Of a DNA stretch of 64,000 nt, positions 2,718 through 31,541 are shown one piece after another. The translations under genes were made by a program, and so were the position numbers. Each line of letters begins with the position of its first letter. Position 1 is the first letter of the stretch. The notes below the pieces were generated by a model. It was not told where the DNA came from, did no database searches, and saw nothing but the letters and a program-made list of their open reading frames with translations. Origin of the DNA: a virus; IMG/VR virus record IMGVR_UViG_3300029250_000344. The stretch is one strand, 5' to 3'.

Positions 2718-3668
2718 TTACTCGCCGAATTTTATTATGGGGAGCGTGCCATCGCCACCTACATACTGCGGTAGTTTGCCATCCCAATGATTAGCGTAGT
2801 AATACCTTACCAAAGCGTCAGTCAGGGACTCGGCCAGCTTGCGGTTCATTTCAGCCTCCTTTTCGCCAGCATACTTAGCAGCATCGGCTTCTATCTTGGC
2901 AACTTCGGCGGCGGCTTCAGCGTTAATACGGGATACTTCAGCAGCGGCCTGTGCTTCTATCACTTGTCGCTGTGATGCGGCTTCAGTCTCCATAGTCTTC
3001 TGCGCCTGTTCGGTTTGTGCTTTAAGCTTATTCTGTTCGGCTACTTGTTTGGCTTCAACAGCATCCGTAAAAGCATCCGTAAAATCAACGTCCTCTATGG
3101 ATATTGCTACAATATTTATGCCATACTCAGACACGTCCTCAGACAGTGCTATGCGTATCTGTTCACTTATTTCGCTACGATTGGACATGAGGGACTCTGC
3201 CGTATACTGGGCAAATACAATCTTGACATGCTCAAGGATGCGAGGATACAGGATGGCATTGTAGTAGTCTTCTCCAACAGTTTTGTATAGCACCTGCGCC
3301 GTATTCTGGTCGATGCAATAGTTAATAGACACTTTCAGGTCTACCTGCTGGATGTCTGAACTAAATGCTTCAGTTTCTATGAGTGTTTTCTGTGTACGGT
3401 TATCTATTTTAACAACATTTTGCCATGGAGCTTTAGCGTGCATACCTGCTCCAATATTGCCGTCTTCAACTTTGCCAAATGTGGTCAGAATGCCTGTATA
3501 GCCGGTCGGCACAGATGTAATGGTGCTAAAAGCGAGTCCTGCTACCAGAGGTACAGCCGCCAGAAACTGAAACTTATTCAGAAATTTCTTGTCGTGCTCT
3601 ACATTGCTTATGCCCGTAAGCAGAAATACGCCTATCGCCAGAACGATGCCTAAAACGAATATAATCAT
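2718..3668 (-). CDS. SPFH/band-7 (prohibitin/HflC-like) membrane protein
   Basis: N-terminal TM helix, SPFH-like core and an Ala/Glu-rich coiled-coil tail. Confidence 0.6.
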   Translation of the reverse strand: MIIFVLGIVLAIGVFLLTGISNVEHDKKFLNKFQFLAAVPLVAGLAFSTITSVPTGYTGILTTFGKVEDGNIGAGMHAKAPWQNVVKIDNRTQKTLIETEAFSSDIQQVDLKVSINYCIDQNTAQVLYKTVGEDYYNAILYPRILEHVKIVFAQYTAESLMSNRSEISEQIRIALSEDVSEYGINIVAISIEDVDFTDAFTDAVEAKQVAEQNKLKAQTEQAQKTMETEAASQRQVIEAQAAAEVSRINAEAAAEVAKIEADAAKYAGEKEAEMNRKLAESLTDALVRYYYANHWDGKLPQYVGGDGTLPIIKFGE

Positions 3669-3680
3669 ATAACTACCCCC

Positions 3681-4115
3681 TTAATTTTCGCCTGTACTAC
3701 CGAATCCACCGCGATTAGCGTTGCCTAAATCATCTACGGATTCAAACGTTATATTGCCGAACTCATGCCGCATAGTTTTGTTTATGCGGAACTGGCAAAT
3801 GCGTGTGCCATCTGGGATAAACGTGTCACGCAGAGCATACACGGGGAATCTCCACACGTCATCATTGCCGCGATAGCTGCTGTCAATCACTCCGTAATGG
3901 TTGGTCTGTATTACGCCCCATTTAGCAAAGGTTGAGCTGCGAGGCACGACATTGGCCTCGTACCCATCAGGCAATGCCATGGCAAAGCCGAGAGGTATGA
4001 GAGCAGACTCACCAGACTTAAGTCGAGTGTCGCCACAGGCATAACAGTCAATCCACTCTCCTTCTGCAATCATCTTTAGCTCAGGAGAGCCACAATATTT
4101 AATCTTGATGTTCAT
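3681..4115 (-). CDS. dut: dUTP diphosphatase
   Basis: GVIDSSYRGND motif and overall dUTPase-like layout in 144 aa. Confidence 0.75.
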   Translation of the reverse strand: MNIKIKYCGSPELKMIAEGEWIDCYACGDTRLKSGESALIPLGFAMALPDGYEANVVPRSSTFAKWGVIQTNHYGVIDSSYRGNDDVWRFPVYALRDTFIPDGTRICQFRINKTMRHEFGNITFESVDDLGNANRGGFGSTGEN

Positions 4116-4668
4116 TCAGACTCCTTATCTCATCTAAAGTTCTTGGTGTGTAGTCCATCCACGGCATCATAGCCCCAACGTTATACATATGGCATGGTAT
4201 CCCGTATAGCTCTTGCATCAAGTAGCGGTTGTGCTCCATCATGTTGTACTCGAAGGAGCTATGAACATGACCATACAAGTGATACCAACCGTAGTAATGG
4301 TTTTTGAAGCACGGGATGGGGTAGTGGCAAAGCACTACCTTTCTCCCCGCGTCTTCGACTTCTAAGTATTCAGTCACCTTAACGAATTTTTTGAGAAACC
4401 GCCCGTCGCCACAACGGTCGTGGTTCCCTTTGATTAAGAAGATATTGCCATTTAATTGCTCGAGGACGGCGATAGCTTCTTGCATATTGCACCAGAACAT
4501 ATCTCCCAGCATATATACTATGTCGCTTGCGCCCACAGCTGAGTTCCAACGCTCAATAAGTGTCGCGTTCATTGCTTCAACCGTTTTGAATGGGCGATTA
4601 TCAAACGCTAATATGTTTTGATGCCCGTAGTGCCAGTCGGAGATGTATAGCTTTCTGTTATCAGGCAT
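4099..4668 (-). CDS. calcineurin-like metallophosphoesterase
   Basis: DWHYGH, GDMF, GNHD motifs. Confidence 0.7.
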   Translation of the reverse strand: MPDNRKLYISDWHYGHQNILAFDNRPFKTVEAMNATLIERWNSAVGASDIVYMLGDMFWCNMQEAIAVLEQLNGNIFLIKGNHDRCGDGRFLKKFVKVTEYLEVEDAGRKVVLCHYPIPCFKNHYYGWYHLYGHVHSSFEYNMMEHNRYLMQELYGIPCHMYNVGAMMPWMDYTPRTLDEIRSLNEHQD

Positions 4669-4677
4669 ACTGTACCC

Positions 4678-6912
4678 TTAGCTACATTTGCTCCAGCCAC
4701 ACTGCTTGCAAACAATGCATCCACCTTCATGCACAACTTCTTTGGCTCCGCAACTTGGGCACGCACCACCCTCAGATGTAGCAACAACAGGGGTTTCCTG
4801 CACCGCATCTTCTTCGTTAGCGCTCTGTTTCAGTTCGTCAAGAATCTGCTGTAACATATACGCTATTGCGCTGGGGCAAGAGCGTCCCTTGCTAACCTCT
4901 ATGCCTTTGCCGCGTGCATACTGATAGCTTGGGCAACTGCCAGCTTTCTGTAGCTGTTCAATTATATATTCTATTGGCACTCCTCCGCGCAATGCGGCAG
5001 ACATGAGACGGCTATTAGCTTGCGTTGACACTACACAACCACCAACGCCATCCGTGTTTGTGAAGAAGTCGTATATCTTACCTTCATCCTCGTCTATACC
5101 GACAAATAGATAAAGTTTGCCACACCCAGTCTTTAACTTATATTTACGATAGGTTAAACCTTCGGGTACATCCTCTATCATGCCACGTTGCAGCTCTTCA
5201 CAAACACGTGGGTCATCGCCATGGTGCGCCTCATTACTGTCAACCAGTATACCTTCACGCTCACACCCAGCACGATAGATGGTTAAACCTTTCAGTCCTG
5301 CCTTCCATGCTTCCATATAGATATTCATCACATCATCTATAGTGGTTTCGTATGGCAAGTTGATAGTGGAGCTAATAGATGCGTCTATATGGCTCTGCCA
5401 AATCGACTGCATAGCTATGCGGTCTATATAGTCAATATCCTTGGCGGTGACGAAATAAGATGGTAATTCAGCCTCATCTTTGAGATTGTGCATTTCCATA
5501 TACTTCTGGACTATAGGAGTATACACCTTATACGTTACTTCCTTGTTATGCAAGCTTTCTGTACGGCGCGTATATGAATTGGCGAAGATAGGTTCTATGC
5601 CGCCACTAATACCAAGCATTGTGCTAAGAGTCCCAGTTGGTGCAATAGTCAGAAGCTGTGAGTTCTTCATACTAATAGGTGTGCGCTTACTATAACGACA
5701 ATTATACTTAAAGAACCCTGTATCCTTATAATTATCAGGGGATAATACGTCAATCTCCTTTGTAGCAGTCATGGAAGCATCTATTGCTGTGTCGGCAAGA
5801 TGAATTCCTATCTCATCACACAGTTCTATTGCAGCGCTTGAGCCGTATTCGACACCCATCATAATTAGCATGTCTGCTAACCCCATTATGCCAAGTCCTA
5901 TCTGACGCCACTTGCGTACGCTATTTCTTTGTTCTTTGAGAGGGTGCAGTGGCATACCTTCATCCAGCACGTCATTCAAGGCATTTACAGCCCTTTCCAC
6001 CGTATTGATGAATGACTGATAATCGAATGAAGCAAAGGGTGTAAATGGTTTTTCGACGAAAGCCGCAAGATTAATGCTGCCAAGCAAACACGAGCCCCCC
6101 TCCGGCAACGGCTCTTCAGCGCATGGATTTACGCCAGCAAACTCAAATTCAGGTGTGTTCGCAAGTAGATTCCACGTCTTTATTCTATCCCAAAACAATA
6201 TACCCGGCTCGGCGGTACGCCAGTTCATTTCAGCTATCTTACGAAATACATCACGAGCATTGACCGTCTTGCTAATGGTTTCGCCTGTCTCAGGACGTGT
6301 ATATGACAGTGTGTAAGGCAAATTGAGTTCTACGGCTACCATAAAGTCATCGGTGATTCGTACAGATATATTTGCCTTAGTGACACGAGATAAATCTGAT
6401 TTGACTTCGATAAATTCTTCGAGGTCGGGGTGGTCACAAGGCATTGAAATCATCAAAGCCCCGCGCCGGCCACATTGCCCTATCAGCCCTGTTACCATGG
6501 AATACAAATCCATAAACGATACAGCACCAGATGTTTCTTTAGCAGTGTTATGAATCTTAGCTCCGCGTGGGGCAAGTTTGCCGAGGTCGATGCCGCACCC
6601 TCCACCATAGCTGAATGTCCGTGCTAACTTGGAAGCACATTCAAAAATAGATTCTATTGAATCTTCGGGCGGCGCAATAACGTAACAGTTAGAATATGTA
6701 ACCTTCTCGCCGTTCTTGTTGAGTCCTCTGTTAGCAAGGATTCTACCGCCAAATAGGAATTTTTTCTCCTTGATGAGAGTTTTAACCGACTCGTCTCCCC
6801 CGCTAACGCGGTCAAGCCATTCGTCAAATGATTCGTTACCGTTCTGGTATTTTTTATGCCATATGTCAATACCAATCTGATTGTCTGCGCCAAGCCATTC
6901 TTCTACTTTCAT
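4678..6912 (-). CDS. nrdJ: ribonucleotide reductase large subunit, probably class II (B12-dependent)
   Basis: NPCAEEPL...GSCLLGSINL active-site region. No ATP cone. C-terminal CxxC...CxxC zinc ribbon. No beta-subunit gene nearby. The ATG at 6912 overlaps the stop of the upstream kinase gene (ATGA); the track ORF extends to 6957. Confidence 0.75.
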   Translation of the reverse strand: MKVEEWLGADNQIGIDIWHKKYQNGNESFDEWLDRVSGGDESVKTLIKEKKFLFGGRILANRGLNKNGEKVTYSNCYVIAPPEDSIESIFECASKLARTFSYGGGCGIDLGKLAPRGAKIHNTAKETSGAVSFMDLYSMVTGLIGQCGRRGALMISMPCDHPDLEEFIEVKSDLSRVTKANISVRITDDFMVAVELNLPYTLSYTRPETGETISKTVNARDVFRKIAEMNWRTAEPGILFWDRIKTWNLLANTPEFEFAGVNPCAEEPLPEGGSCLLGSINLAAFVEKPFTPFASFDYQSFINTVERAVNALNDVLDEGMPLHPLKEQRNSVRKWRQIGLGIMGLADMLIMMGVEYGSSAAIELCDEIGIHLADTAIDASMTATKEIDVLSPDNYKDTGFFKYNCRYSKRTPISMKNSQLLTIAPTGTLSTMLGISGGIEPIFANSYTRRTESLHNKEVTYKVYTPIVQKYMEMHNLKDEAELPSYFVTAKDIDYIDRIAMQSIWQSHIDASISSTINLPYETTIDDVMNIYMEAWKAGLKGLTIYRAGCEREGILVDSNEAHHGDDPRVCEELQRGMIEDVPEGLTYRKYKLKTGCGKLYLFVGIDEDEGKIYDFFTNTDGVGGCVVSTQANSRLMSAALRGGVPIEYIIEQLQKAGSCPSYQYARGKGIEVSKGRSCPSAIAYMLQQILDELKQSANEEDAVQETPVVATSEGGACPSCGAKEVVHEGGCIVCKQCGWSKCS

Positions 6913-8653: not shown

Positions 8654-8713
8654 CAGTTTTCCGTTGCGGATACCCCTTGCTTTAGCTACGGGGCAACGAA
8701 CCTCCTTTCATAT

Positions 8714-10009
8714 TTATGCTATTAAAAAATTCCGACTACGTTCCAGTAATTTCAAATGCTTATAGTTTACGCCATCCTTAACCTTTGTTCCATCAAGCTG
8801 CCGTAACAAAAAAGAACCACTGGTTCGCCTCCCCCAAACAAAACACACAATGCCATTGTATAACACTTTGTCGTAGAGGCGGTATCCAAAGACATACCTC
8901 TCTGCTTGATTGGACTTGCGGATTCCTCCCTTGAGAACAGTCGCCTTGTGGAGCTGCCGATTGTGGTGTCTCACTGGGCGAATCGTATAAACCTTATTGA
9001 CTTGCACGATCCCCGGAAGATGGCTGACATTGAAGCCATGCTTGCCTTGTGCGATTGCCAGAGCGTCATTGGTGTGGCTCTTGGGGAGCACTAACAACTT
9101 CTCTCGGGTAGCCTTTGTAATGTAGCCTTTCGTTTCGACAACGGGGATGTGCAACTCAGAGCAGAATCTTTGAACCAGTGTTGCCCGCATGACTCCCATG
9201 AACGTAGCATCTCTGGTTGGCCTTCGCTTGCGCTTCTTGAGGTCTTTCTCCGTAATCAACCCGCCGTGATGCTTTTTGTGACAACTTTCGCAAAGAGTGA
9301 TGAGGTTGCCGGGAGCGTCGCCGCCATATTTTCGGCTTTCCAGATGATGAACATGGAGCCGAACTTCATTCTTCTTTGTTGGCTGAACCCCGCAGCACTG
9401 GCAAGCATAGCCATCCCTCCAAAGTACGTACTGACGCACATTGTAGTGACCGTACATCTCTCCCTGCTGGTAGTCCTCTCCCTGTGGGACAGATTTCCCT
9501 TCTTCAATGGTTTTCAGCAGTTGCAAGTCGAACTCAGCAGTTTCTACGACCACCTTGCTCACCGGCAGGATGCGGCAAACCATCTTGATGGCGGTAATAT
9601 GCTCTTGGATTTTCACCTCCACAGAAGGCGCTAACCACCCTTTATGCTTACTGCGAACTCTGTTATTGAAACGTGGTTTACGGTAGCGGTTTTTTCGGTT
9701 TCTCCGAGCCTTGCGGAATTCACGACGAGTTGACATCAATTCCACCACGTCATTGCGCGGCTTTACTTCTGCTGAGAACAACTCCTCTTTTGTAGTGGAC
9801 GCGGACACTCCAATAGTCTTACTCCCAGCGTCCACTCCCAGAATAACCTTTTGAGTGTAACCGCTACTCCCGTAGATTAACTGGATGGTAAAAGGCGTCC
9901 TTTTCTTCACTTTGGCTTTCCCTTCATCCAGCAGATGGCGGGCTTTCGCCGGGGAGCAGGGCATCAGCGGACGCCCGTGCTTGTTAAGGACATATACTTT
10001 ATTTTGCAT
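8714..10009 (-). CDS. iscB: IscB RNA-guided nuclease
   Basis: N-terminal PLMP motif (GRPLMPCSPAKARHLL). RuvC-I GVDAGSKTIGVS. Arg-rich bridge REFRKARRNRKNRYRKPR. RuvC-II ETAEFD. HNH CQCCG...HVHHL...LCESCH. RuvC-III HTNDALA. Confidence 0.85.
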   Translation of the reverse strand: MQNKVYVLNKHGRPLMPCSPAKARHLLDEGKAKVKKRTPFTIQLIYGSSGYTQKVILGVDAGSKTIGVSASTTKEELFSAEVKPRNDVVELMSTRREFRKARRNRKNRYRKPRFNNRVRSKHKGWLAPSVEVKIQEHITAIKMVCRILPVSKVVVETAEFDLQLLKTIEEGKSVPQGEDYQQGEMYGHYNVRQYVLWRDGYACQCCGVQPTKKNEVRLHVHHLESRKYGGDAPGNLITLCESCHKKHHGGLITEKDLKKRKRRPTRDATFMGVMRATLVQRFCSELHIPVVETKGYITKATREKLLVLPKSHTNDALAIAQGKHGFNVSHLPGIVQVNKVYTIRPVRHHNRQLHKATVLKGGIRKSNQAERYVFGYRLYDKVLYNGIVCFVWGRRTSGSFLLRQLDGTKVKDGVNYKHLKLLERSRNFLIA

Positions 10010-10297
10010 GACACCAACCTCCCTCTTTTTTTTTGATTGTGACTAAAATAAAAAGCCACGCGGCCTTTCAGCCGTCAGGTATCCGTCCCCAATGTTATCT
10101 CAAGGTTTTTGTGTGCAACACTGCTCCTTACCCTCAGAACTGTTTAATCACACACCGCAGTGCGGCAGGTTCGGATTCACGCCCGCCGGTGCCTATACAT
10201 ACATTCTTGAGTAACGTAGTGCTCGAAGCACTCAGGGTAGTCAGTCTGAGCTTACGATTTCTCGCAAGCCCCGGCTTTAGCCGTGGGCTACTGACTT
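10010..10297 (-). ncRNA. candidate IscB omegaRNA
   Basis: ORF-free leader immediately 5' of iscB. Conserved blocks (TCCCCAATGT, TAACGTAGTGC, AGGGTAGTCA) and a compensatory-substituted hairpin are shared with the leader of the second iscB copy. Confidence 0.5.
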
Positions 10298-11451
10298 GAT
10301 GCAGTCAGACCACGAATGATGCTGTCTATCTCATGCGCGACTGATATGAAATCTGCCTGCCGAAATCCCTTAGTAGTCATAGCGGCGGTGCCAATTCGCA
10401 CGCCAGAGGTCTGCATAGGACTGCGAGATTCGTTCGGTACGCTGTTTTTATTGAGCGTGATGGAGTATTTGTCTAATGCGTCCTGAACGGCCTTGCCAGT
10501 CAGATTTGGGTGTGTACGTGTAAAATCGAGAAGGAACATGTGGTTGTCTGTACCGCCTGTCACCACTTCGTAGCCCATACGTGTGAATTCATTTGCCATA
10601 GCTTTGGCGTTTGCCTTGACTTGACAGATATAACTGATAAAATCAGGCTTTAAGGCTTCTTCAGCAGTTACAGCTTTTGCCGCTATAGTGTGCATATGTG
10701 GACCACCAGCCAAGCCGGGGAACAGCGCACTATCTACCTTCTTAGCGTATTCAGGTTTGCAGAAGATAAGAGCAGACCTTATGCCGCGTAACGTTTTATG
10801 AGTAGTAGTCGTTACAATATCGGCATAACCAAACGGAGATGGATGCTCTCCCGCCGCTACAAGTCCAGCTATATGGGCGATGTCTGCAAGTAGCAGTGCG
10901 TCATTGGCGTGCGCAATCTCAGCAAAACGCTCAAAGTCAATGACACGGCTATATGCAGATGCGCCAGCCACGATGAGCTTAGGCTTAAACGCCTTAGTCG
11001 TCGCTTCGACGTGTGCCATGTCTATATATCCATTGATATCAAGGCAATAGTGGCGAATATTGTACAATTTGCCAACCTGACTGACGGCAGCACCGTGTGA
11101 AAGATGCCCACCCATATTCAAGTCCAAACTAAGTATGATGTCGTTGGGTTTTAGCACCGTTGCATATGCTACCAAATTAGCGTGCGTACCGCTAAGTGGC
11201 TGAACGTTTACATGATAATCTGTATGGAATACTTCCTGCCACTTCTGTTGGCAGTATAGTTCAAGCTCGTCTACAATATCGCAGCCACCATAGTAGCGTT
11301 TGCCCGGATAGCCCTCGGCATATTTATTGGTTAAGCAACTTCCAGCCGCCTTTAGCACGTTTGCGGATACAAAATTTTCTGATGCTATCAGCTCTATGGT
11401 TGAATCTTGGCGGTTTGCTTCCTTTTGTATCAGTTCAAATACTTTACTCAT
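10288..11451 (-). CDS. glyA: serine hydroxymethyltransferase
   Basis: ELIASENF N-terminal motif and PLP-lysine region THKTLRG. 387 aa. The last codons and the stop lie inside IS-derived sequence. Confidence 0.85.
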   Translation of the reverse strand: MSKVFELIQKEANRQDSTIELIASENFVSANVLKAAGSCLTNKYAEGYPGKRYYGGCDIVDELELYCQQKWQEVFHTDYHVNVQPLSGTHANLVAYATVLKPNDIILSLDLNMGGHLSHGAAVSQVGKLYNIRHYCLDINGYIDMAHVEATTKAFKPKLIVAGASAYSRVIDFERFAEIAHANDALLLADIAHIAGLVAAGEHPSPFGYADIVTTTTHKTLRGIRSALIFCKPEYAKKVDSALFPGLAGGPHMHTIAAKAVTAEEALKPDFISYICQVKANAKAMANEFTRMGYEVVTGGTDNHMFLLDFTRTHPNLTGKAVQDALDKYSITLNKNSVPNESRSPMQTSGVRIGTAAMTTKGFRQADFISVAHEIDSIIRGLTASSQ

Positions 11452-21311: not shown

Positions 21312-21387
21312 TGGAGCCATCTGTGGGACTCGAACCCACAACCTTCGCCTTACGAAAGCGTCGCTCTACCGATTGGGCTAAGATGGC
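21312..21387 (-). tRNA. tRNA-Thr (anticodon CGU), CCA encoded
   Basis: 7-bp acceptor stem, GTTCGAGTC T-arm, A14/G18G19/A21 D-loop. The anticodon stem has one mismatch. Confidence 0.6.
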
Positions 21388-21567
21388 CTGATGAATGGAA
21401 GCTTCCCCCGAAGGGAGGTTTACCAACCCAGATGCATCTTAGGGTTTCCTTTACAAACTCGAAAGTCTTACCTGTCAAACCAAGTTTAATACCGTGACTC
21501 TTTATTTAGGGTGTACCCCTCGGGGTGAGGGACGGATACAAGACGATTTCCCCGAGCTGGAGCCGAC

Positions 21568-21641
21568 AGGCGGACTCGAACCGCCACTACCTGCTTACAA
21601 GACAGGGCTTCTGCCATTGAATTATGTCGGCTTGGCCCTAT
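21568..21641 (-). tRNA. tRNA-Thr (anticodon UGU), CCA encoded
   Basis: Perfect acceptor and T stems. Anticodon loop CTTGTAA. Confidence 0.65.
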
Positions 21642-21673
21642 ATGATATAGGGCCTTTTCGAAAGGAGGCTTAA

Positions 21674-21721
21674 GCCAGTGGTGGGAGTTGCACCCACATA
21701 TCGACACTAAATTACACTGGC
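21674..21721 (-). other. tRNA-like minihelix (acceptor-type 7-bp stem enclosing a T-arm-like hairpin)
   Basis: GCCAGTG ... GTGGG-TGCAACT-CCCAC ... CACTGGC on the minus strand, with no D or anticodon arms. Confidence 0.3.
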
Positions 21722-21836
21722 ATGATGAGCAACCTTTCTGCCGTAGTGTGCCAAAGTCTTACTCCGGCCACGGCCGTCTCCGTAGCTGCTCGGGACGCAT
21801 AAACTCGTCTACGTGGGCATCCATGGAATGCCAAAT

Positions 21837-21921
21837 TGGTGCCGAGAGCGGGATTTGAACCCGCAAGCTTTTCGCCGGCGGATTTTAAGTCCGCTGTGTA
21901 TGCCTATTCCACCATCTCGGC
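21837..21921 (-). tRNA. tRNA-Leu (anticodon UAA), type II with long variable arm, CCA encoded
   Basis: Acceptor GCCGAGA/TCTCGGC. T-arm GCGGGTTCAAATCCCGC. Anticodon stem GCGGA/TCCGC with loop CTTAAAA. Confidence 0.8.
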
Positions 21922-27734: not shown

Positions 27735-28586
27735 TCATTCATCCATTTCCACAAAATTGCCGTCCACGAGGACATAATATGTATCTGCTTTTATGGTCAC
27801 GCCGTCTACCTGCGCCATCTTGGCACAGATAAGCTTGCCTTCCTTCCACTCCGTGCAAACAATATATGCTCCAAGCACGCCCTTGGCACGGCCTTTTAAG
27901 CCCCACGCAACCGCAATGGCAGTAGGATTGTCCGCAGATGCTGCGCCCCGACAGCCTGTCACCAATGCCGCACTATAATTGCCTGTCGCAAATGCAGCAC
28001 CCTTATCACCTGTCGCAGATGCCACACCCCCTTTGCCTGTCGCAGAGACCGCGCTCTGATCACCTGTCGCAGATGCAGCGCTATAATCACCTTCCGCGAA
28101 TGTTGCACTATAGTCGTCTGTCGCAGATGCAGTGCTCTGAATGCCTGCCGCAGATGCCACGCTTTGATAGCCTGTCACGGATGCCGCGCTATAATCGCCT
28201 GTCACATATGCCACACTCTGATCGCCTGTTGCAGATGCAACGCCCTGATCGCCTGTCACGCGCTTACGGCGTGATTTATTGCACTTGGACATATTATATT
28301 TCAGGGATGCCTTCACAAGGCTTGCTATATCCATTCTTGCGCCAACCCTGATGGTCTTGGCACATACCTTGCTATCGTCTTCACACTCGTCAGATACCTC
28401 ATCAAGCTCTACCTCATGATATACGCTGCTGTTTGGTGGGTAGTAAGCCAGCACGTCAAGCGGATACTTACATGCGTGGAAGCCGCTTTCGCACAGCTTT
28501 GTCATATCAGTATGGTACGTCTCGCCCTCTGCATATTGAAAGCCACGGCACGTCATATCGCGATTGAAACCCTTGTATGCTTTCAT
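27735..28586 (-). CDS. nonapeptide-repeat (TGDxSxASA) protein
   Basis: About 12 tandem 9-residue repeats following a Cys/His-containing N-terminal domain. Confidence 0.55.
   Translation of the reverse strand: MKAYKGFNRDMTCRGFQYAEGETYHTDMTKLCESGFHACKYPLDVLAYYPPNSSVYHEVELDEVSDECEDDSKVCAKTIRVGARMDIASLVKASLKYNMSKCNKSRRKRVTGDQGVASATGDQSVAYVTGDYSAASVTGYQSVASAAGIQSTASATDDYSATFAEGDYSAASATGDQSAVSATGKGGVASATGDKGAAFATGNYSAALVTGCRGAASADNPTAIAVAWGLKGRAKGVLGAYIVCTEWKEGKLICAKMAQVDGVTIKADTYYVLVDGNFVEMDE
27930..28270. repeat. 27-bp tandem coding repeat array (about 12 units)
   Basis: Repeated CCTGTCGCAGATGC(A/C)(G/C)C... units visible directly in the sequence. Confidence 0.7.
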
Positions 28587-28592
28587 TCTTAT

Positions 28593-29186
28593 TTATACCC
28601 CCTCATCGAGCCGCTCAATCTCTGCTTCAAGTTCAGCCTTTTTGTATATGGCAATAGCGCGACGCATATCATTTATGGCCTGTTTATATATATTACCAAA
28701 GTCTTTATACAGCTTATACCCATTTTCGACGGAGAAGATATAGTCATTATTTACACCATCCCAATCTATAGGGTTATATTCCTGTATGCGCTTTAGAAAA
28801 TTAACCCAAACATCTTCGGCTTCTGCTTTATAGGCATAGGCGGAACTCGCGCATAAATTCAATCGCCCACAACCTCCACAACCAAAATGAATATACCATT
28901 TACTATCATTCAGCGTTTGATGTGTAGTTTTATTTGTAAGTCTGTAATTATGAACTACGTCAAAGCAAAAACTACAATAATGGCGCTTTAGCTTAATCAT
29001 ATGCCAACCATCGACAGACATTTCCTCCGGTGGAATATCGCACTCTATTGCAGCAGACAGTAGTTCTACTACTTGTTGAGGTGTCTGCCCGTTGTATTCT
29101 TTTGTCAACACCTTTGTGTCCTTAACAATTCTTTTAGCAATGGATAGATGTTTTTCCAACTGCTTCTTATTAACCATTCCCAACAT
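28593..29186 (-). CDS. hypothetical protein
   Basis: ORF. Confidence 0.45.
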   Translation of the reverse strand: MLGMVNKKQLEKHLSIAKRIVKDTKVLTKEYNGQTPQQVVELLSAAIECDIPPEEMSVDGWHMIKLKRHYCSFCFDVVHNYRLTNKTTHQTLNDSKWYIHFGCGGCGRLNLCASSAYAYKAEAEDVWVNFLKRIQEYNPIDWDGVNNDYIFSVENGYKLYKDFGNIYKQAINDMRRAIAIYKKAELEAEIERLDEGV

Positions 29187-29514
29187 CCCCTCCCTTGTAT
29201 TTCGGCATCTCGGCCCAATTTGTCACTTCACACTCTTCACACAAAGCATGACAAAACCATGTTCCTTTGGGGGTTAAAAAACATTCACGCGAAGTAGGGA
29301 ACGGATCTTGACTTGGTATATGTCCTATCACTGACACATACTCCGGGGGTGGGTTACTTGGGGCGTCGTGCCAAGTTACGACCTGTTTACTAAGCTCCTC
29401 TATGACATCGGCAGCTTCCGCACATATATCACGTTTTCGAAGACTGACGCTATTTGTGTGCGATATTTCTCGCAAGCTCTTTATAAGTTCCTCTTTGTTC
29501 ATTAAGTGGGGCAA
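29170..29514 (-). CDS. hypothetical protein (TTG start)
   Basis: ORF. Confidence 0.4.
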   Translation of the reverse strand: MPHLMNKEELIKSLREISHTNSVSLRKRDICAEAADVIEELSKQVVTWHDAPSNPPPEYVSVIGHIPSQDPFPTSRECFLTPKGTWFCHALCEECEVTNWAEMPKYKGGDVGNG

Positions 29515-29637
29515 GGATACCCATAACTTTAGTCATGGGAGGAATTGCCCTTTTACTTCCTTTCTGTAATGTAATTCGTTGAAGCTTCTAATAGTCGCAG
29601 CTTTCTGTAGGACGCACTGTTAGAAACAACAGTGCCA

Positions 29638-30805
29638 TCAAACTTTTTTTAGAGCAAAATATCCTGATATGCGTCTGCCTGTGATAAAGCATTCTGTACC
29701 GTTATAGGATACTTTGTCCCAAAGGCGATAGCCTTTTACGATGTACGGTGCTTGATTAGCTTTGCGTATGCCGCCTTTCAGGATGGTTGCTTTATGCAAC
29801 TGCCTGTTATGGTGACGTACTGCTTTTGTGTAGTAGCAAGTACCACAAGGTATAGCCAATAGATTTTTACTAATGCATCGTGCATCATTGGTGTGGCTTT
29901 TAGAGATGCTGTTCTTTTCGCGTAAATACTTTGTTATGTAGCCGTAAGTCTCTTGCACAGGGATCTTTAGATTTTTGTGCAGGCGTTCCATAAGTGTCTT
30001 GCGCATAATGCCCATAAAGGCTGCATCTTGGAGAGGCTTTCCTCTCTTTTTGCCGTCAAGTGTTACCTTTCCAGCGTGTAGTGCTTTGTGACAAACTGTG
30101 CAAAGCACTACAAGATTGTTGGGTGCATTGCCACCTGTTCTACGGGTCTCGATGTGATGCACATGCAGCTTTATGCCTTTAGTTTTGGTAGAATGCGCTC
30201 CACAGCACTGGCAAGTGTTTTAGTACATACTGGCGTACATTGTACTCATCGTACATTTCACCAATCTGATAGTCTGTGCCAACTGGCATAGGTTTACCTT
30301 CCAGCATTGCTTTCAAACGTTGTGTGTCAAACTCTGCTGTCTCCACTCTGACGAGCGTAATAGGTAAAATGCGACATACGCGCTTAATGAGCGTAATGTG
30401 TTCCTGAATCTTAACCTCTACCGACGGCGCTAACCAGCCCTTATGTTTGCTATGCACCCTGTTGCTAAAACGCGGCGCACGATAGCGTGTTTTACGGTGC
30501 CGTCTGTTGCGTCTGAAAGCACGGCGTGCAGAAAGCAAATCGACCACATCATTGCGTGGAGTTGCTTCTTCACGATAGAGTTCGTACTTTTCAGTCGTAG
30601 CAGATATACCGATATGTTTGCTGCCTGCATCCACACCCAAAGTAACGGGTTGTTTGTATCCTGTACTTCCGTACAGAAGTTTGATTGTAAATGGTGTACG
30701 TTTTACAACGCTCGCCTTATTCTGCTTTAACAATAAGCGAGTCTTGCGTGGAGAACACGGCATCAAGGGTTCGCCGCGCTCGTTAAGTACATACACATAT
30801 TGCAT
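29638..30805 (-). pseudogene. iscB: iscB pseudogene (frameshift/stop in the HNH region)
   Basis: ORFs 30179..30805 and 29638..30162 together align to full-length IscB. About 13 nt are missing between ...VRQYVL and CQCCG, which shifts the frame. PLMP, RuvC-I/II/III and the second half of HNH are retained. Confidence 0.75.
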
Positions 30806-31125
30806 GACGCCATGCCCCTTTCTTAGTGTGACAGCTAATGATAAGCTGTCCTCTCCTCCGAAGAAGAGTTAGAATCCTTCCCCAATGTCATAAGCGGTTT
30901 AATGCAGCCACACCTGTTGTCTTTGCCTCGGATTTCTTTGATGTGTTGCCTTAGAGCGTGCAGTTAGGATTGACGCCACACGGTAACTATCTATTCGCCT
31001 ATAACGTAGTGCAGCATACAGCACGAGGCTATAGCTGAGGGTAGTCAACACACCCTTTCGGGCGCGGCTGAAGTTACAGACTCACGTTTCCACAAGCCCG
31101 CGACTTCAGTCGTGGGTTATTGACT
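30806..31125 (-). ncRNA. candidate omegaRNA, copy 2
   Basis: 5' leader of the iscB pseudogene. Shares conserved blocks and the covarying hairpin with 10010-10297. Confidence 0.45.
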
Positions 31126-31541
31126 TCCTCAAAAGGCTTAACCTCCGGCTCGACATGACCACTGATTGTCATATCATCACGTCTCCGTGGTGTATACACG
31201 CGCTCCTGTTGCTTGTTATATAGTTTTCTGGCATTGCCTTGTATCTGTGTGAGGCGGTTCTTAAATGCTGATTGACTTTGAAGATAAGTGTAAAGCTCGT
31301 TTAGTAGTTCGTTTTCCTCCTTGGCTTTGCGCCGTCGCTGTCGTGCCTCCCGCAATTCCTTATATATAACGTATCCTTCGCGAGCATTCTTGGGTTTACC
31401 GAGTTCGATTTCATGCAGCAAGTCGTTTATTTCCCCGTTTACCTGCTCCAACTCGGTCTCATTGGCACGATACGCTGACGCCACACTGTCATATATCTGC
31501 GTGATGGTTGTAGCATACCTGTCAACGATATTAGAACTCAT
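31074..31541 (-). CDS. hypothetical protein; C-terminal codons lie in the IS end
   Basis: ORF. Confidence 0.4.
   Translation of the reverse strand: MSSNIVDRYATTITQIYDSVASAYRANETELEQVNGEINDLLHEIELGKPKNAREGYVIYKELREARQRRRKAKEENELLNELYTYLQSQSAFKNRLTQIQGNARKLYNKQQERVYTPRRRDDMTISGHVEPEVKPFEEVNNPRLKSRACGNVSL

Follow-up and report, generated by a model that had tools for sequence, protein, structure and literature searches.

Does a guide-RNA gene that looks intact beside a broken nuclease gene reveal selection on the RNA, or only that too little time has passed for it to decay? The question is raised by a gut phage locus in IMG/VR virus record IMGVR_UViG_3300029250_000344, of which we analysed a stretch of 64,000 nt (the window, to which all coordinates refer unless another contig is named). 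The window holds an intact IscB element, copy 1, and a second one, copy 2, which the original prediction had described as an IscB element with a pseudogenised nuclease, a retained omegaRNA-like leader and intact end hairpins. A base-pair change in one leader hairpin had been taken to point to selection on structure, with a decaying copy as the fallback. We conclude that copy 2 is most likely a recently inactivated copy of a known and widespread phage family of tnpA-less IscB/omegaRNA elements. Its omegaRNA gene looks intact for lack of time to decay, not through demonstrable selection.

The copy-2 element and its broken iscB gene

Copy 2 is a tnpA-less IscB/HEARO insertion sequence of the IS200/IS605 family, 1,622 nt long, and occupies 29503..31124 on the minus strand. 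In 16 full-length IMG/VR relatives the homology to copy 2 begins at GTCAATAACCC and finishes at ...CCCCACTTA, and a blastn comparison of the window with L044, a related contig in which the site is empty, breaks exactly at 31125 and 29502; the element therefore runs over 29503..31124 and is followed by ATGAA. Homology to the empty site thus corrects the ends of the span first proposed (29520-31125). The end hairpins are both present as described, at 31097..31116 and 29520..29539. The ends have the features of IS200/IS605 elements of the ISC type, with subterminal imperfect hairpins on both sides and no terminal inverted repeats, and the junctions show no target-site duplication when compared with empty sites. 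TnpA, the Y1 HUH transposase that marks the autonomous members of the family, has no match (Pfam PF01797 Y1_Tnp) in any of the window's 75 open reading frames (ORFs) between 100 and 220 aa, nor does the same sequence show a convincing HUH motif. The lack of tnpA in the window is expected, because only ~1.5% of iscB genes have tnpA nearby (Meers et al.). The parts of the element outside the leader, together with its right-end hairpin, are as follows.

29503..31124, minus strand: whole copy-2 element, delimited by the relatives' homology and by blastn breakpoints against the empty-site relative L044
31097..31116, minus strand: subterminal hairpin of the transposon right end, which is also the first hairpin of the omegaRNA scaffold
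30179..30805, minus strand: N-terminal frame of the iscB pseudogene with PLMP/RRXRR, RuvC-I, bridge helix and RuvC-II, ending with 12 out-of-frame codons and TAA
30211..30223, minus strand: lesion 1, an 11-nt deletion with its junction between 30219 and 30218 (MAFFT against 16 intact relatives; pairwise against the sister-phage contig L031)
29638..30162, minus strand: middle frame of the iscB pseudogene, with HNH from HVHH on, RuvC-III and most of the C-terminal region that interacts with the transposon-adjacent motif (TAM)
29643..29652, minus strand: lesion 2, a +1 frameshift caused by a surplus A in what is now an A7 run (one base fewer in 16/16 relatives and in L031)
29553..29642, minus strand: final ~30 iscB codons in a third frame, to the ancestral stop TAA at 29553..29555 (third high-scoring segment of the tblastn search)
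29503..29552, minus strand: iscB-distal end (transposon left end in the TnpA convention), with the subterminal hairpin CCCATGACTAAAGTTATGGG at 29520..29539, kept in all relatives

The first 32 nt of the copy-2 scaffold are found exactly in 23 IMG/VR loci with unrelated flanks; full-length elements, of 70-86% nucleotide identity, are present in 16 of them, and in all 16 iscB is read in a single frame. A closer relative, L031, was found through a hairpin sequence specific to copy 2 and is a metagenome contig of a sister phage, ~92% identical overall. It carries the same element at the same site, with the 11 nt present, an A6 run and an intact 420-aa IscB in a single frame.

Compared by tblastn with the IscB of copy 1 (431 aa, 8714..10009), copy 2 matches in three frames: residues 5-196 at 71%, 203-405 at 53% and 403-429 at 41%. 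The two ORFs that had been said to make up a full-length IscB, 30179..30805 (208 aa) and 29638..30162 (174 aa), do align with copy 1, and the third frame is needed for the last ~30 codons. The first of these ORFs contains the RRXRR domain (Pfam PF14239, E=6e-59) and the GVDAGSK motif of the RuvC-I region, and the HNH match on the second is limited to profile positions 16-46 of 47 (Pfam). At lesion 1 the 16 intact relatives and L031 read (A)CGTGA(C/T)AATT(A), encoding K-RDNY-T. About 13 nt had been thought to be missing here; the deletion and the frameshift to TAA stand, and the size is 11 nt. It takes out the conserved RDNY just N-terminal of the first HNH CxxC, after which the reading frame meets TAA at 30179..30181. 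Lesion 2, a second frameshift absent from the earlier account, lies in the A-run at 29644..29650, which is A7 in copy 2 and A6 in L031, and shifts the last ~30 codons. When both indels are restored to register in a codon alignment there is no internal stop, and all the catalytic motifs are present except the deleted RDNY. A single-frame iscB with a complete HNH domain in a split RuvC is therefore seen in L031 and the 16 relatives and not in copy 2. Given the three frames, the loss of RDNY and the partial HNH match, we regard copy 2 as an IscB pseudogene and not a working member, in agreement with the original prediction. Its nuclease is predicted to be dead, through the 11-nt deletion at the HNH domain and the 1-nt insertion near the 3' end.

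Could the gene nonetheless be intact, with the frameshifts arising from sequencing or assembly errors, or being bypassed by programmed frameshifting or transcriptional slippage? Lesion 2 does lie in a homopolymer (A7), a classic site of errors and slippage. A search with the neighbouring 260-aa protein led to this phage in seven assemblies made independently (from ENA and Logan, from different samples and by MEGAHIT, SPAdes or Logan). Over 10 kb they share 99.65-99.97% identity with the window; six are gap-free and the seventh (L030) covers 9.4 kb with one gap. Both lesions are present in 7/7 assemblies, identical across differing pipelines and samples, and 76 collection blocks index the truncated 208-aa ORF in exactly this form, compared with 82 for the neighbouring gene. 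This recurrence effectively rules out the sequencing artefact that had been allowed for at the outset, for lesion 1 as far as assemblies can do so. The 11-nt deletion is, moreover, no homopolymer error; it removes four conserved residues that recoding cannot restore, there is no slippery heptamer at lesion 1, and the sister lineage encodes IscB in one frame. An intact gene is in our judgement scarcely credible. The seven strains have three single-nucleotide polymorphism (SNP) sites within copy 2, and the lesions are fixed in this phage lineage.

Another explanation is that the fragments still work, as a split or truncated nuclease such as an IsrB-like nickase or RNA-binding remnant that continues to use the omegaRNA. 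Natural relatives without HNH (IsrB) exist (Meers et al.), the N-terminal fragment keeps the entire RRXRR/PLMP region, and no catalytic motif is mutated besides the deleted RDNY. However, this fragment is without RuvC-III, which is separated from RuvC-I and -II, and the second fragment, beginning at an internal GTG, is missing the HNH zinc site's first CxxC at one end and the C-terminal ~30 residues at the other. The substitutions since inactivation also argue against a working protein. We polarised the ORF differences between copy 2 and L031 with 16 outgroups, and obtained 6 nonsynonymous and 5 synonymous changes derived in copy 2, compared with 2 and 5 in L031; against the family baseline of 24 nonsynonymous to 90 synonymous, the 6:5 of copy 2 is raised (Fisher p=0.023). 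Among the copy-2 changes, K9E and T237V (in the HNH domain) hit residues that are invariant in 16/16 relatives. The copy-2 ORF has been under relaxed constraint since its split from L031, as expected of a pseudogene, and we consider a functional split nuclease very unlikely. Measured pairwise against the IMG/VR relatives, the ratio of nonsynonymous to synonymous rates gives a weak signal (0.06-0.075 versus 0.04-0.065; terminal-branch Fisher p=0.07), because the terminal branch is mostly time before inactivation, and L031 was needed to isolate the recent segment. With iscB broken and the constraint on its ORF relaxed, the fallback of a decaying copy is the part of the earlier interpretation that we retain.

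The omegaRNA gene and the time since inactivation

The leader upstream of iscB contains the following features.

30868..31124, minus strand: omegaRNA scaffold (HEARO RNA), matched by Rfam RF02033
31009..31037, minus strand: lineage-specific enlarged scaffold hairpin with an 11-nt insertion relative to IMG/VR relatives, missing in 18 relatives and identical in L031
30806..30867, minus strand: 3' part of the leader, with small hairpins at 30853..30868 and 30830..30850 and a weakened Shine-Dalgarno sequence AAAGGGGC at 30814..30821 (alignment A1)

RF02033 matches the leader over its full length (model positions 1-211) with 69.4 bits and E=2e-13. This score is lower than the gathering score of 83, and homology is clear from the E-value and the full-length match. 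The cognate omegaRNA lies on the same strand as iscB and ends 62 nt upstream of its ATG. Relatives with an intact iscB score 70.7-87 bits (L031 70.7; the others 74.8-87), so the sub-threshold score is a trait of the sub-lineage. We considered the score, the 11-nt hairpin insertion and a 2-nt deletion before the Shine-Dalgarno sequence as signs of decay, and rejected them, since L031, with its intact iscB, has all three. The 2-nt deletion, together with a change of AGGAG to GGGGC, is common to copy 2 and L031.

That the RNA of this family is structured is clear from the family structure alignment (A1), in which 98.3% of the cells are paired. Compensatory changes occur in 16/86 consensus pairs, a count reached by 0/500 shuffles and compared with 1-4 in slid controls, and copy 2 breaks 4/86 consensus pairs where its close relatives break 0-3. 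This covariation says nothing on present selection on copy 2. Over 265 aligned columns the leaders of copies 1 and 2 have 76% identity (z=11.6 relative to shuffled sequences), and the similarity reported between them thus holds under a proper alignment; each of the three sequence blocks said to be shared has one occurrence in either leader and none elsewhere in the window. A3, a MAFFT alignment with copy 1 added, places part of copy 1 wrongly and was left out of the covariation counts between the two copies.

The hairpin that had suggested selection reads CGGC/GCCG in copy 1 and CGAC/GTCG in copy 2. The difference is real, and it does not serve as a sign of selection on structure as opposed to neutral decay. 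CGAC/GTCG is present in every relative that we recovered; for the 23 IMG/VR loci this is a consequence of the 32-nt probe, which contains the hairpin, and L031, found with a different probe, also carries it beside an intact iscB. The change therefore predates the inactivation. The difference between the copies is best read as an old divergence of two presumably functional omegaRNA lineages, whose proteins are 62% identical.

What, then, has happened to the leader since the nuclease was lost? Copy 2 and L031 differ at 2/319 leader positions, 20/1,252 ORF positions and 0/56 positions of the distal end (29497..29552 including the TAM, 56/56 identical). The sole derived change in the copy-2 leader, 31084 C>T, turns a G-C pair into G·U, a state also found in intact relatives. 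One derived substitution in 319 nt, set against 11 in 1,252 nt of dead ORF, compares with 2.8 expected (Poisson P(≤1)=0.23), and across these 319 nt there is no significant substitution deficit of the kind that purifying selection on the copy-2 RNA after the death of the nuclease would leave. There is no evidence of decay of the omegaRNA either, this single change being a conservative one. In 2 of the 7 strains the scaffold has lost a conserved C-G pair to a segregating SNP, 30997 C>A. Neither constraint nor decay of the leader is detectable because too little time has elapsed since inactivation, about 1% divergence. Nothing about the present function of the copy-2 RNA would follow from its intact gene and ends. 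An intact-looking guide-RNA gene beside a dead nuclease is no evidence of selection unless the time since inactivation is known.

The element itself is 98.4-100% identical between copy 2 and L031, and the adjacent 150-nt flanks are 83% and 89% identical (window 29350..31275 against L031 ~3130..5060). The change in identity is sharp at the omegaRNA end, and other islands of high identity lie nearby, for example at 27828..28627. This suggests a recent lateral spread of the element into the same site, by homing or recombination.

Guide, empty sites and possible use of the RNA in trans

In IscB elements the omegaRNA takes its guide from the DNA that borders the right end of the transposon, just 5' of the scaffold; in the IscB model, transcription enters from a co-oriented gene upstream, and the TAM is found beside the left end (Meers et al.). 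The corresponding features of copy 2, together with copy 1, are listed here.

31125..31140, minus strand: omegaRNA guide segment TAAGCCTTTTGAGGAA, directly 5' of the scaffold, in phage DNA that flanks the element and belongs to the 3' end of the co-oriented gene upstream
29498..29502, minus strand: TAM ATGAA (TTCAT in TnpA orientation), also the start codon of the downstream 110-aa gene; L044 fixes the boundary
8654..10295, minus strand: copy 1, the intact IscB element, with iscB at 8714..10009 and HEARO RNA at 10074..10295; distal boundary by analogy (…AAAACTG/ATGACA, the slash marking the boundary)

The gene upstream of copy 2 is co-oriented with it and reads 16 codons into the scaffold, and we found no promoter-like site on the element's own strand inside copy 2. 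Both observations are consistent with the read-in transcription described by Meers et al. Five contigs of related phages (L044-L048) are empty sites and carry 158-aa homologues of this upstream gene. The guide matches 16/16 positions in all five, where it is followed by ATGAT, and has no other close match within the window. A perfect guide match beside an ATGA-type motif at empty sites is what the model of IscB homing or retention requires, and RNA-guided double-strand cleavage next to the TAM would fit this sequence logic. Full-length family insertions with a readable distal junction have ATGAA or ATGAC after the distal end (TTCAT or GTCAT in TnpA orientation), and TTCAT is the experimentally determined wild-type TAM of GstIscB (ISGst5; Meers et al.).

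We propose the following history. In the intact element, read-through from the upstream co-oriented gene would make an omegaRNA with its 5' 16 nt taken from the flank, and IscB with this RNA would cut genomes that carry an uninterrupted target beside a TAM (ATGA-N). Recombinational repair from an element-bearing genome would then presumably copy the element in, which amounts to homing or retention. The element has become fixed in this phage lineage and iscB was then lost to both lesions, loss of selection after fixation being the probable cause of the decay. The omegaRNA gene and end hairpins may still be transcribable, and may still be movable by TnpA in trans. The three states of this one locus in related phages, empty (L044-L048), occupied and intact (L031) and occupied and degenerate (the window), fit with the cycle of invasion, fixation and degeneration of homing endonuclease genes.

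It is also possible that copy 2 persists as a non-autonomous guide module, its omegaRNA being loaded in trans by the IscB of copy 1, cutting competitor phages with an uninterrupted site and being kept by selection. Both copies lie on one 241-kb contig, where the iscB of copy 1 is intact and its HEARO RNA (10074..10295) scores 122 bits with RF02033. Their TAMs are of one class (copy 2 has ATGAA, and ATGAC is assigned to copy 1 by analogy), the copy-2 scaffold is paired as well as that of its intact orthologue, and the 16/16 guide matches next to ATGAT in L044-L048 would provide targets. TnpB elements are known to have RNA-only derivatives, the PATEs, that depend on such service in trans (Meers et al.), and an internally deleted mini-element, L016, exists in the family. 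Against this, there is no positive sign of selection (1 derived substitution against 2.8 expected, p=0.23), the segregating SNP 30997 C>A breaks a conserved pair, and the CGAC/GTCG pair predates the inactivation. Cross-loading would be hypothetical, with scaffolds that are 76% identical and differ by two extra hairpins, and with 62% identity between the IscB of copy 1 and that of the copy-2 lineage. Literature searches on omegaRNA interchangeability and on IscB pseudogenes gave nothing relevant. We think a selected guide module of this kind unlikely, and find it quite improbable that the copy-2 omegaRNA is kept as a stand-alone guide for the copy-1 IscB, which would give the phage one nuclease with two guides. 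Were it true, the second guide would be aimed at the uninterrupted allele (TAAGCCTTTTGAGGAA followed by ATGAT) of competing relatives such as L044-L048, and would act as a homing drive, or as a weapon programmed by RNA for use in superinfection or competition, that has no nuclease gene of its own.

Several points weigh against recent inactivation of a once working element. The production of the RNA and the cleavage that it would direct are deduced here from sequence. Empty targets persist in related phages, and 'no targets left' is true only within this lineage. The contrast of 6:5 with 24:90 is one of small counts. With 2.8 substitutions expected and 1 observed, there was very little power to detect constraint on the omegaRNA, and the RNA may be under purifying selection. 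The element is far more similar between copy 2 and L031 than are the flanks, and lateral transfer in place of vertical descent could complicate the dating.

The insertion site has further peculiarities. The element replaces, and does not merely interrupt, the sequence of the empty sites: 326 nt in the L044 type (4417..4744) and 57 nt in the L046 type (3093..3153). The 326 nt comprise the last 57 nt of the 158-aa gene and an 83-aa ORF that is missing from the window. Both junctions in the empty genomes lie immediately 5' of ATGA (GAGGAA/ATGATG and GTGCGG/ATGAAC, the slash marking the junction), and the replacement could have come about by ATGA-microhomology deletion, by an alternative TAM used by TnpA or by conversion during homing. 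In P0121, a 152-aa protein from a 612-nt ENA contig, the same upstream phage gene passes at the same codon position into another variant of HEARO (…PFED-VNNPRLKSRASRS*), so that the site appears to have been occupied by more than one lineage of the element. In the window the last 16 codons and the stop of the upstream gene lie in the omegaRNA 5' region (31074..31124), and the downstream 110-aa gene starts at the ATG of the TAM (29497..29514 region) and has lost the AAGGAA Shine-Dalgarno sequence that is present in L044. Parts of the element now serve host genes at both ends (31074..31124; 29497..29514). We rejected the idea that copy 2 had split a single gene into ORFs of 155 and 110 aa, because the upstream gene has homologues of 158 aa that stand apart from the downstream gene.

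Copy 1 (region 8654..10306) has its insertion point at the extreme end of an SHMT-like gene, and the stop codon TAG of that gene falls within the first 8 nt of the omegaRNA. The distal end of copy 1 is by analogy followed by ATGAC, the same TAM class as in copy 2, and around the element are the nucleotide-metabolism genes DNA methylase, SHMT, ThyX and ribonucleotide reductase.

The family and its place among known systems

Outside the viral contigs, the element family is also found in the chromosome of Owariibacterium komagatae (Oscillospiraceae), a Clostridia bacterium and the one named host for the family. The copy-2 allele was found at a single genomic site. No match was obtained in GenBank phages, searched with the element in near and distant modes and with 19 kb of flank in near mode; searches of IMG/VR with the neighbouring protein, a left-flank 26-mer, the copy-2-specific hairpin and the empty-site pattern found nothing, nor did a search of GTDB genomes with the empty-site pattern. 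The mini-element L016 (6902..~7800) lies on the same viral contig as the full-length L003, IMGVR_UViG_3300029248_000007. Retaining the omegaRNA and the distal end but only 44 codons from the start and 29 from the end of iscB, it is PATE-like; its omegaRNA scores 74.8 bits with HEARO and breaks 2/86 consensus pairs. The IMG/VR contig of L015, which also has a family member, contains at 9977..10062 (plus strand) a sub-threshold match to the type-P1 twister ribozyme (53 bits where the gathering score is 67.2, E=4.6e-9). As for the replicon, three clustered tRNA genes occur in the window at 21315..21921 on the minus strand (Rfam tRNA, 60-61.5 bits each), and contigs of up to 291 kb carry ThyX, RNR, SSB, dUTPase and dCMP deaminase genes. 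The tRNA cluster, contig sizes and nucleotide-metabolism genes suggest a large phage.

Copy 2 leaves the understanding of how IscB elements work unchanged, and its value is mainly corrective. With three site states, a guide that matches the empty allele perfectly and a TAM equal to that of GstIscB, the locus would be a convenient natural system in which to ask whether IscB elements home between co-infecting phages and whether paralogous IscBs share omegaRNAs.

Among known systems, the closest likeness is to the IscB-omegaRNA (OMEGA) elements such as ISGst5/GstIscB (Meers et al. 2023) and OgeuIscB. The intact relatives of copy 2 have the same RRXRR/PLMP region with split RuvC and HNH, and copy 2 shares the HEARO-type omegaRNA directly upstream, the flank-derived guide, the absence of tnpA and the co-oriented upstream gene. 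It resembles ISGst5/GstIscB further in the subterminal hairpins at both ends and in a TAM, ATGAA (TTCAT in TnpA orientation), identical to the GstIscB wild type. Unlike these elements, copy 2 has a nuclease gene that is broken twice, resides in a large phage and not in a bacterial chromosome, and possesses an omegaRNA with two lineage-specific extra hairpins that falls below the Rfam gathering threshold. With HEARO RF02033 the RNA shares the full model (1-211), the conserved P1, the pseudoknot-forming GGGG/CCC blocks and ACGUUA; it departs from the model where the second hairpin is followed by an insertion and where the last hairpin matches weakly, and both lower the score, as they do in L031.

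In lacking a working nuclease while keeping its ends and guide-RNA gene, so that any activity would need proteins in trans, copy 2 is similar to PATEs and MITE-like IS200/IS605 derivatives. PATEs have no protein-coding remnant and occur in multiple dispersed copies, whereas copy 2 keeps a near-full-length ORF with two lesions and was found at one locus, and is neither streamlined nor amplified. The last comparison is with homing endonuclease genes, including the free-standing HNH homing genes of phages, for which a cycle of invasion, fixation and degeneration has been described (Goddard and Burt 1999). The empty, intact and degenerate states of the copy-2 site, and the apparent decay of the endonuclease after fixation, parallel this cycle. 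Unlike in homing endonuclease genes, recognition would be RNA-guided, homing is deduced here, and the transposon would also depend on TnpA in trans.

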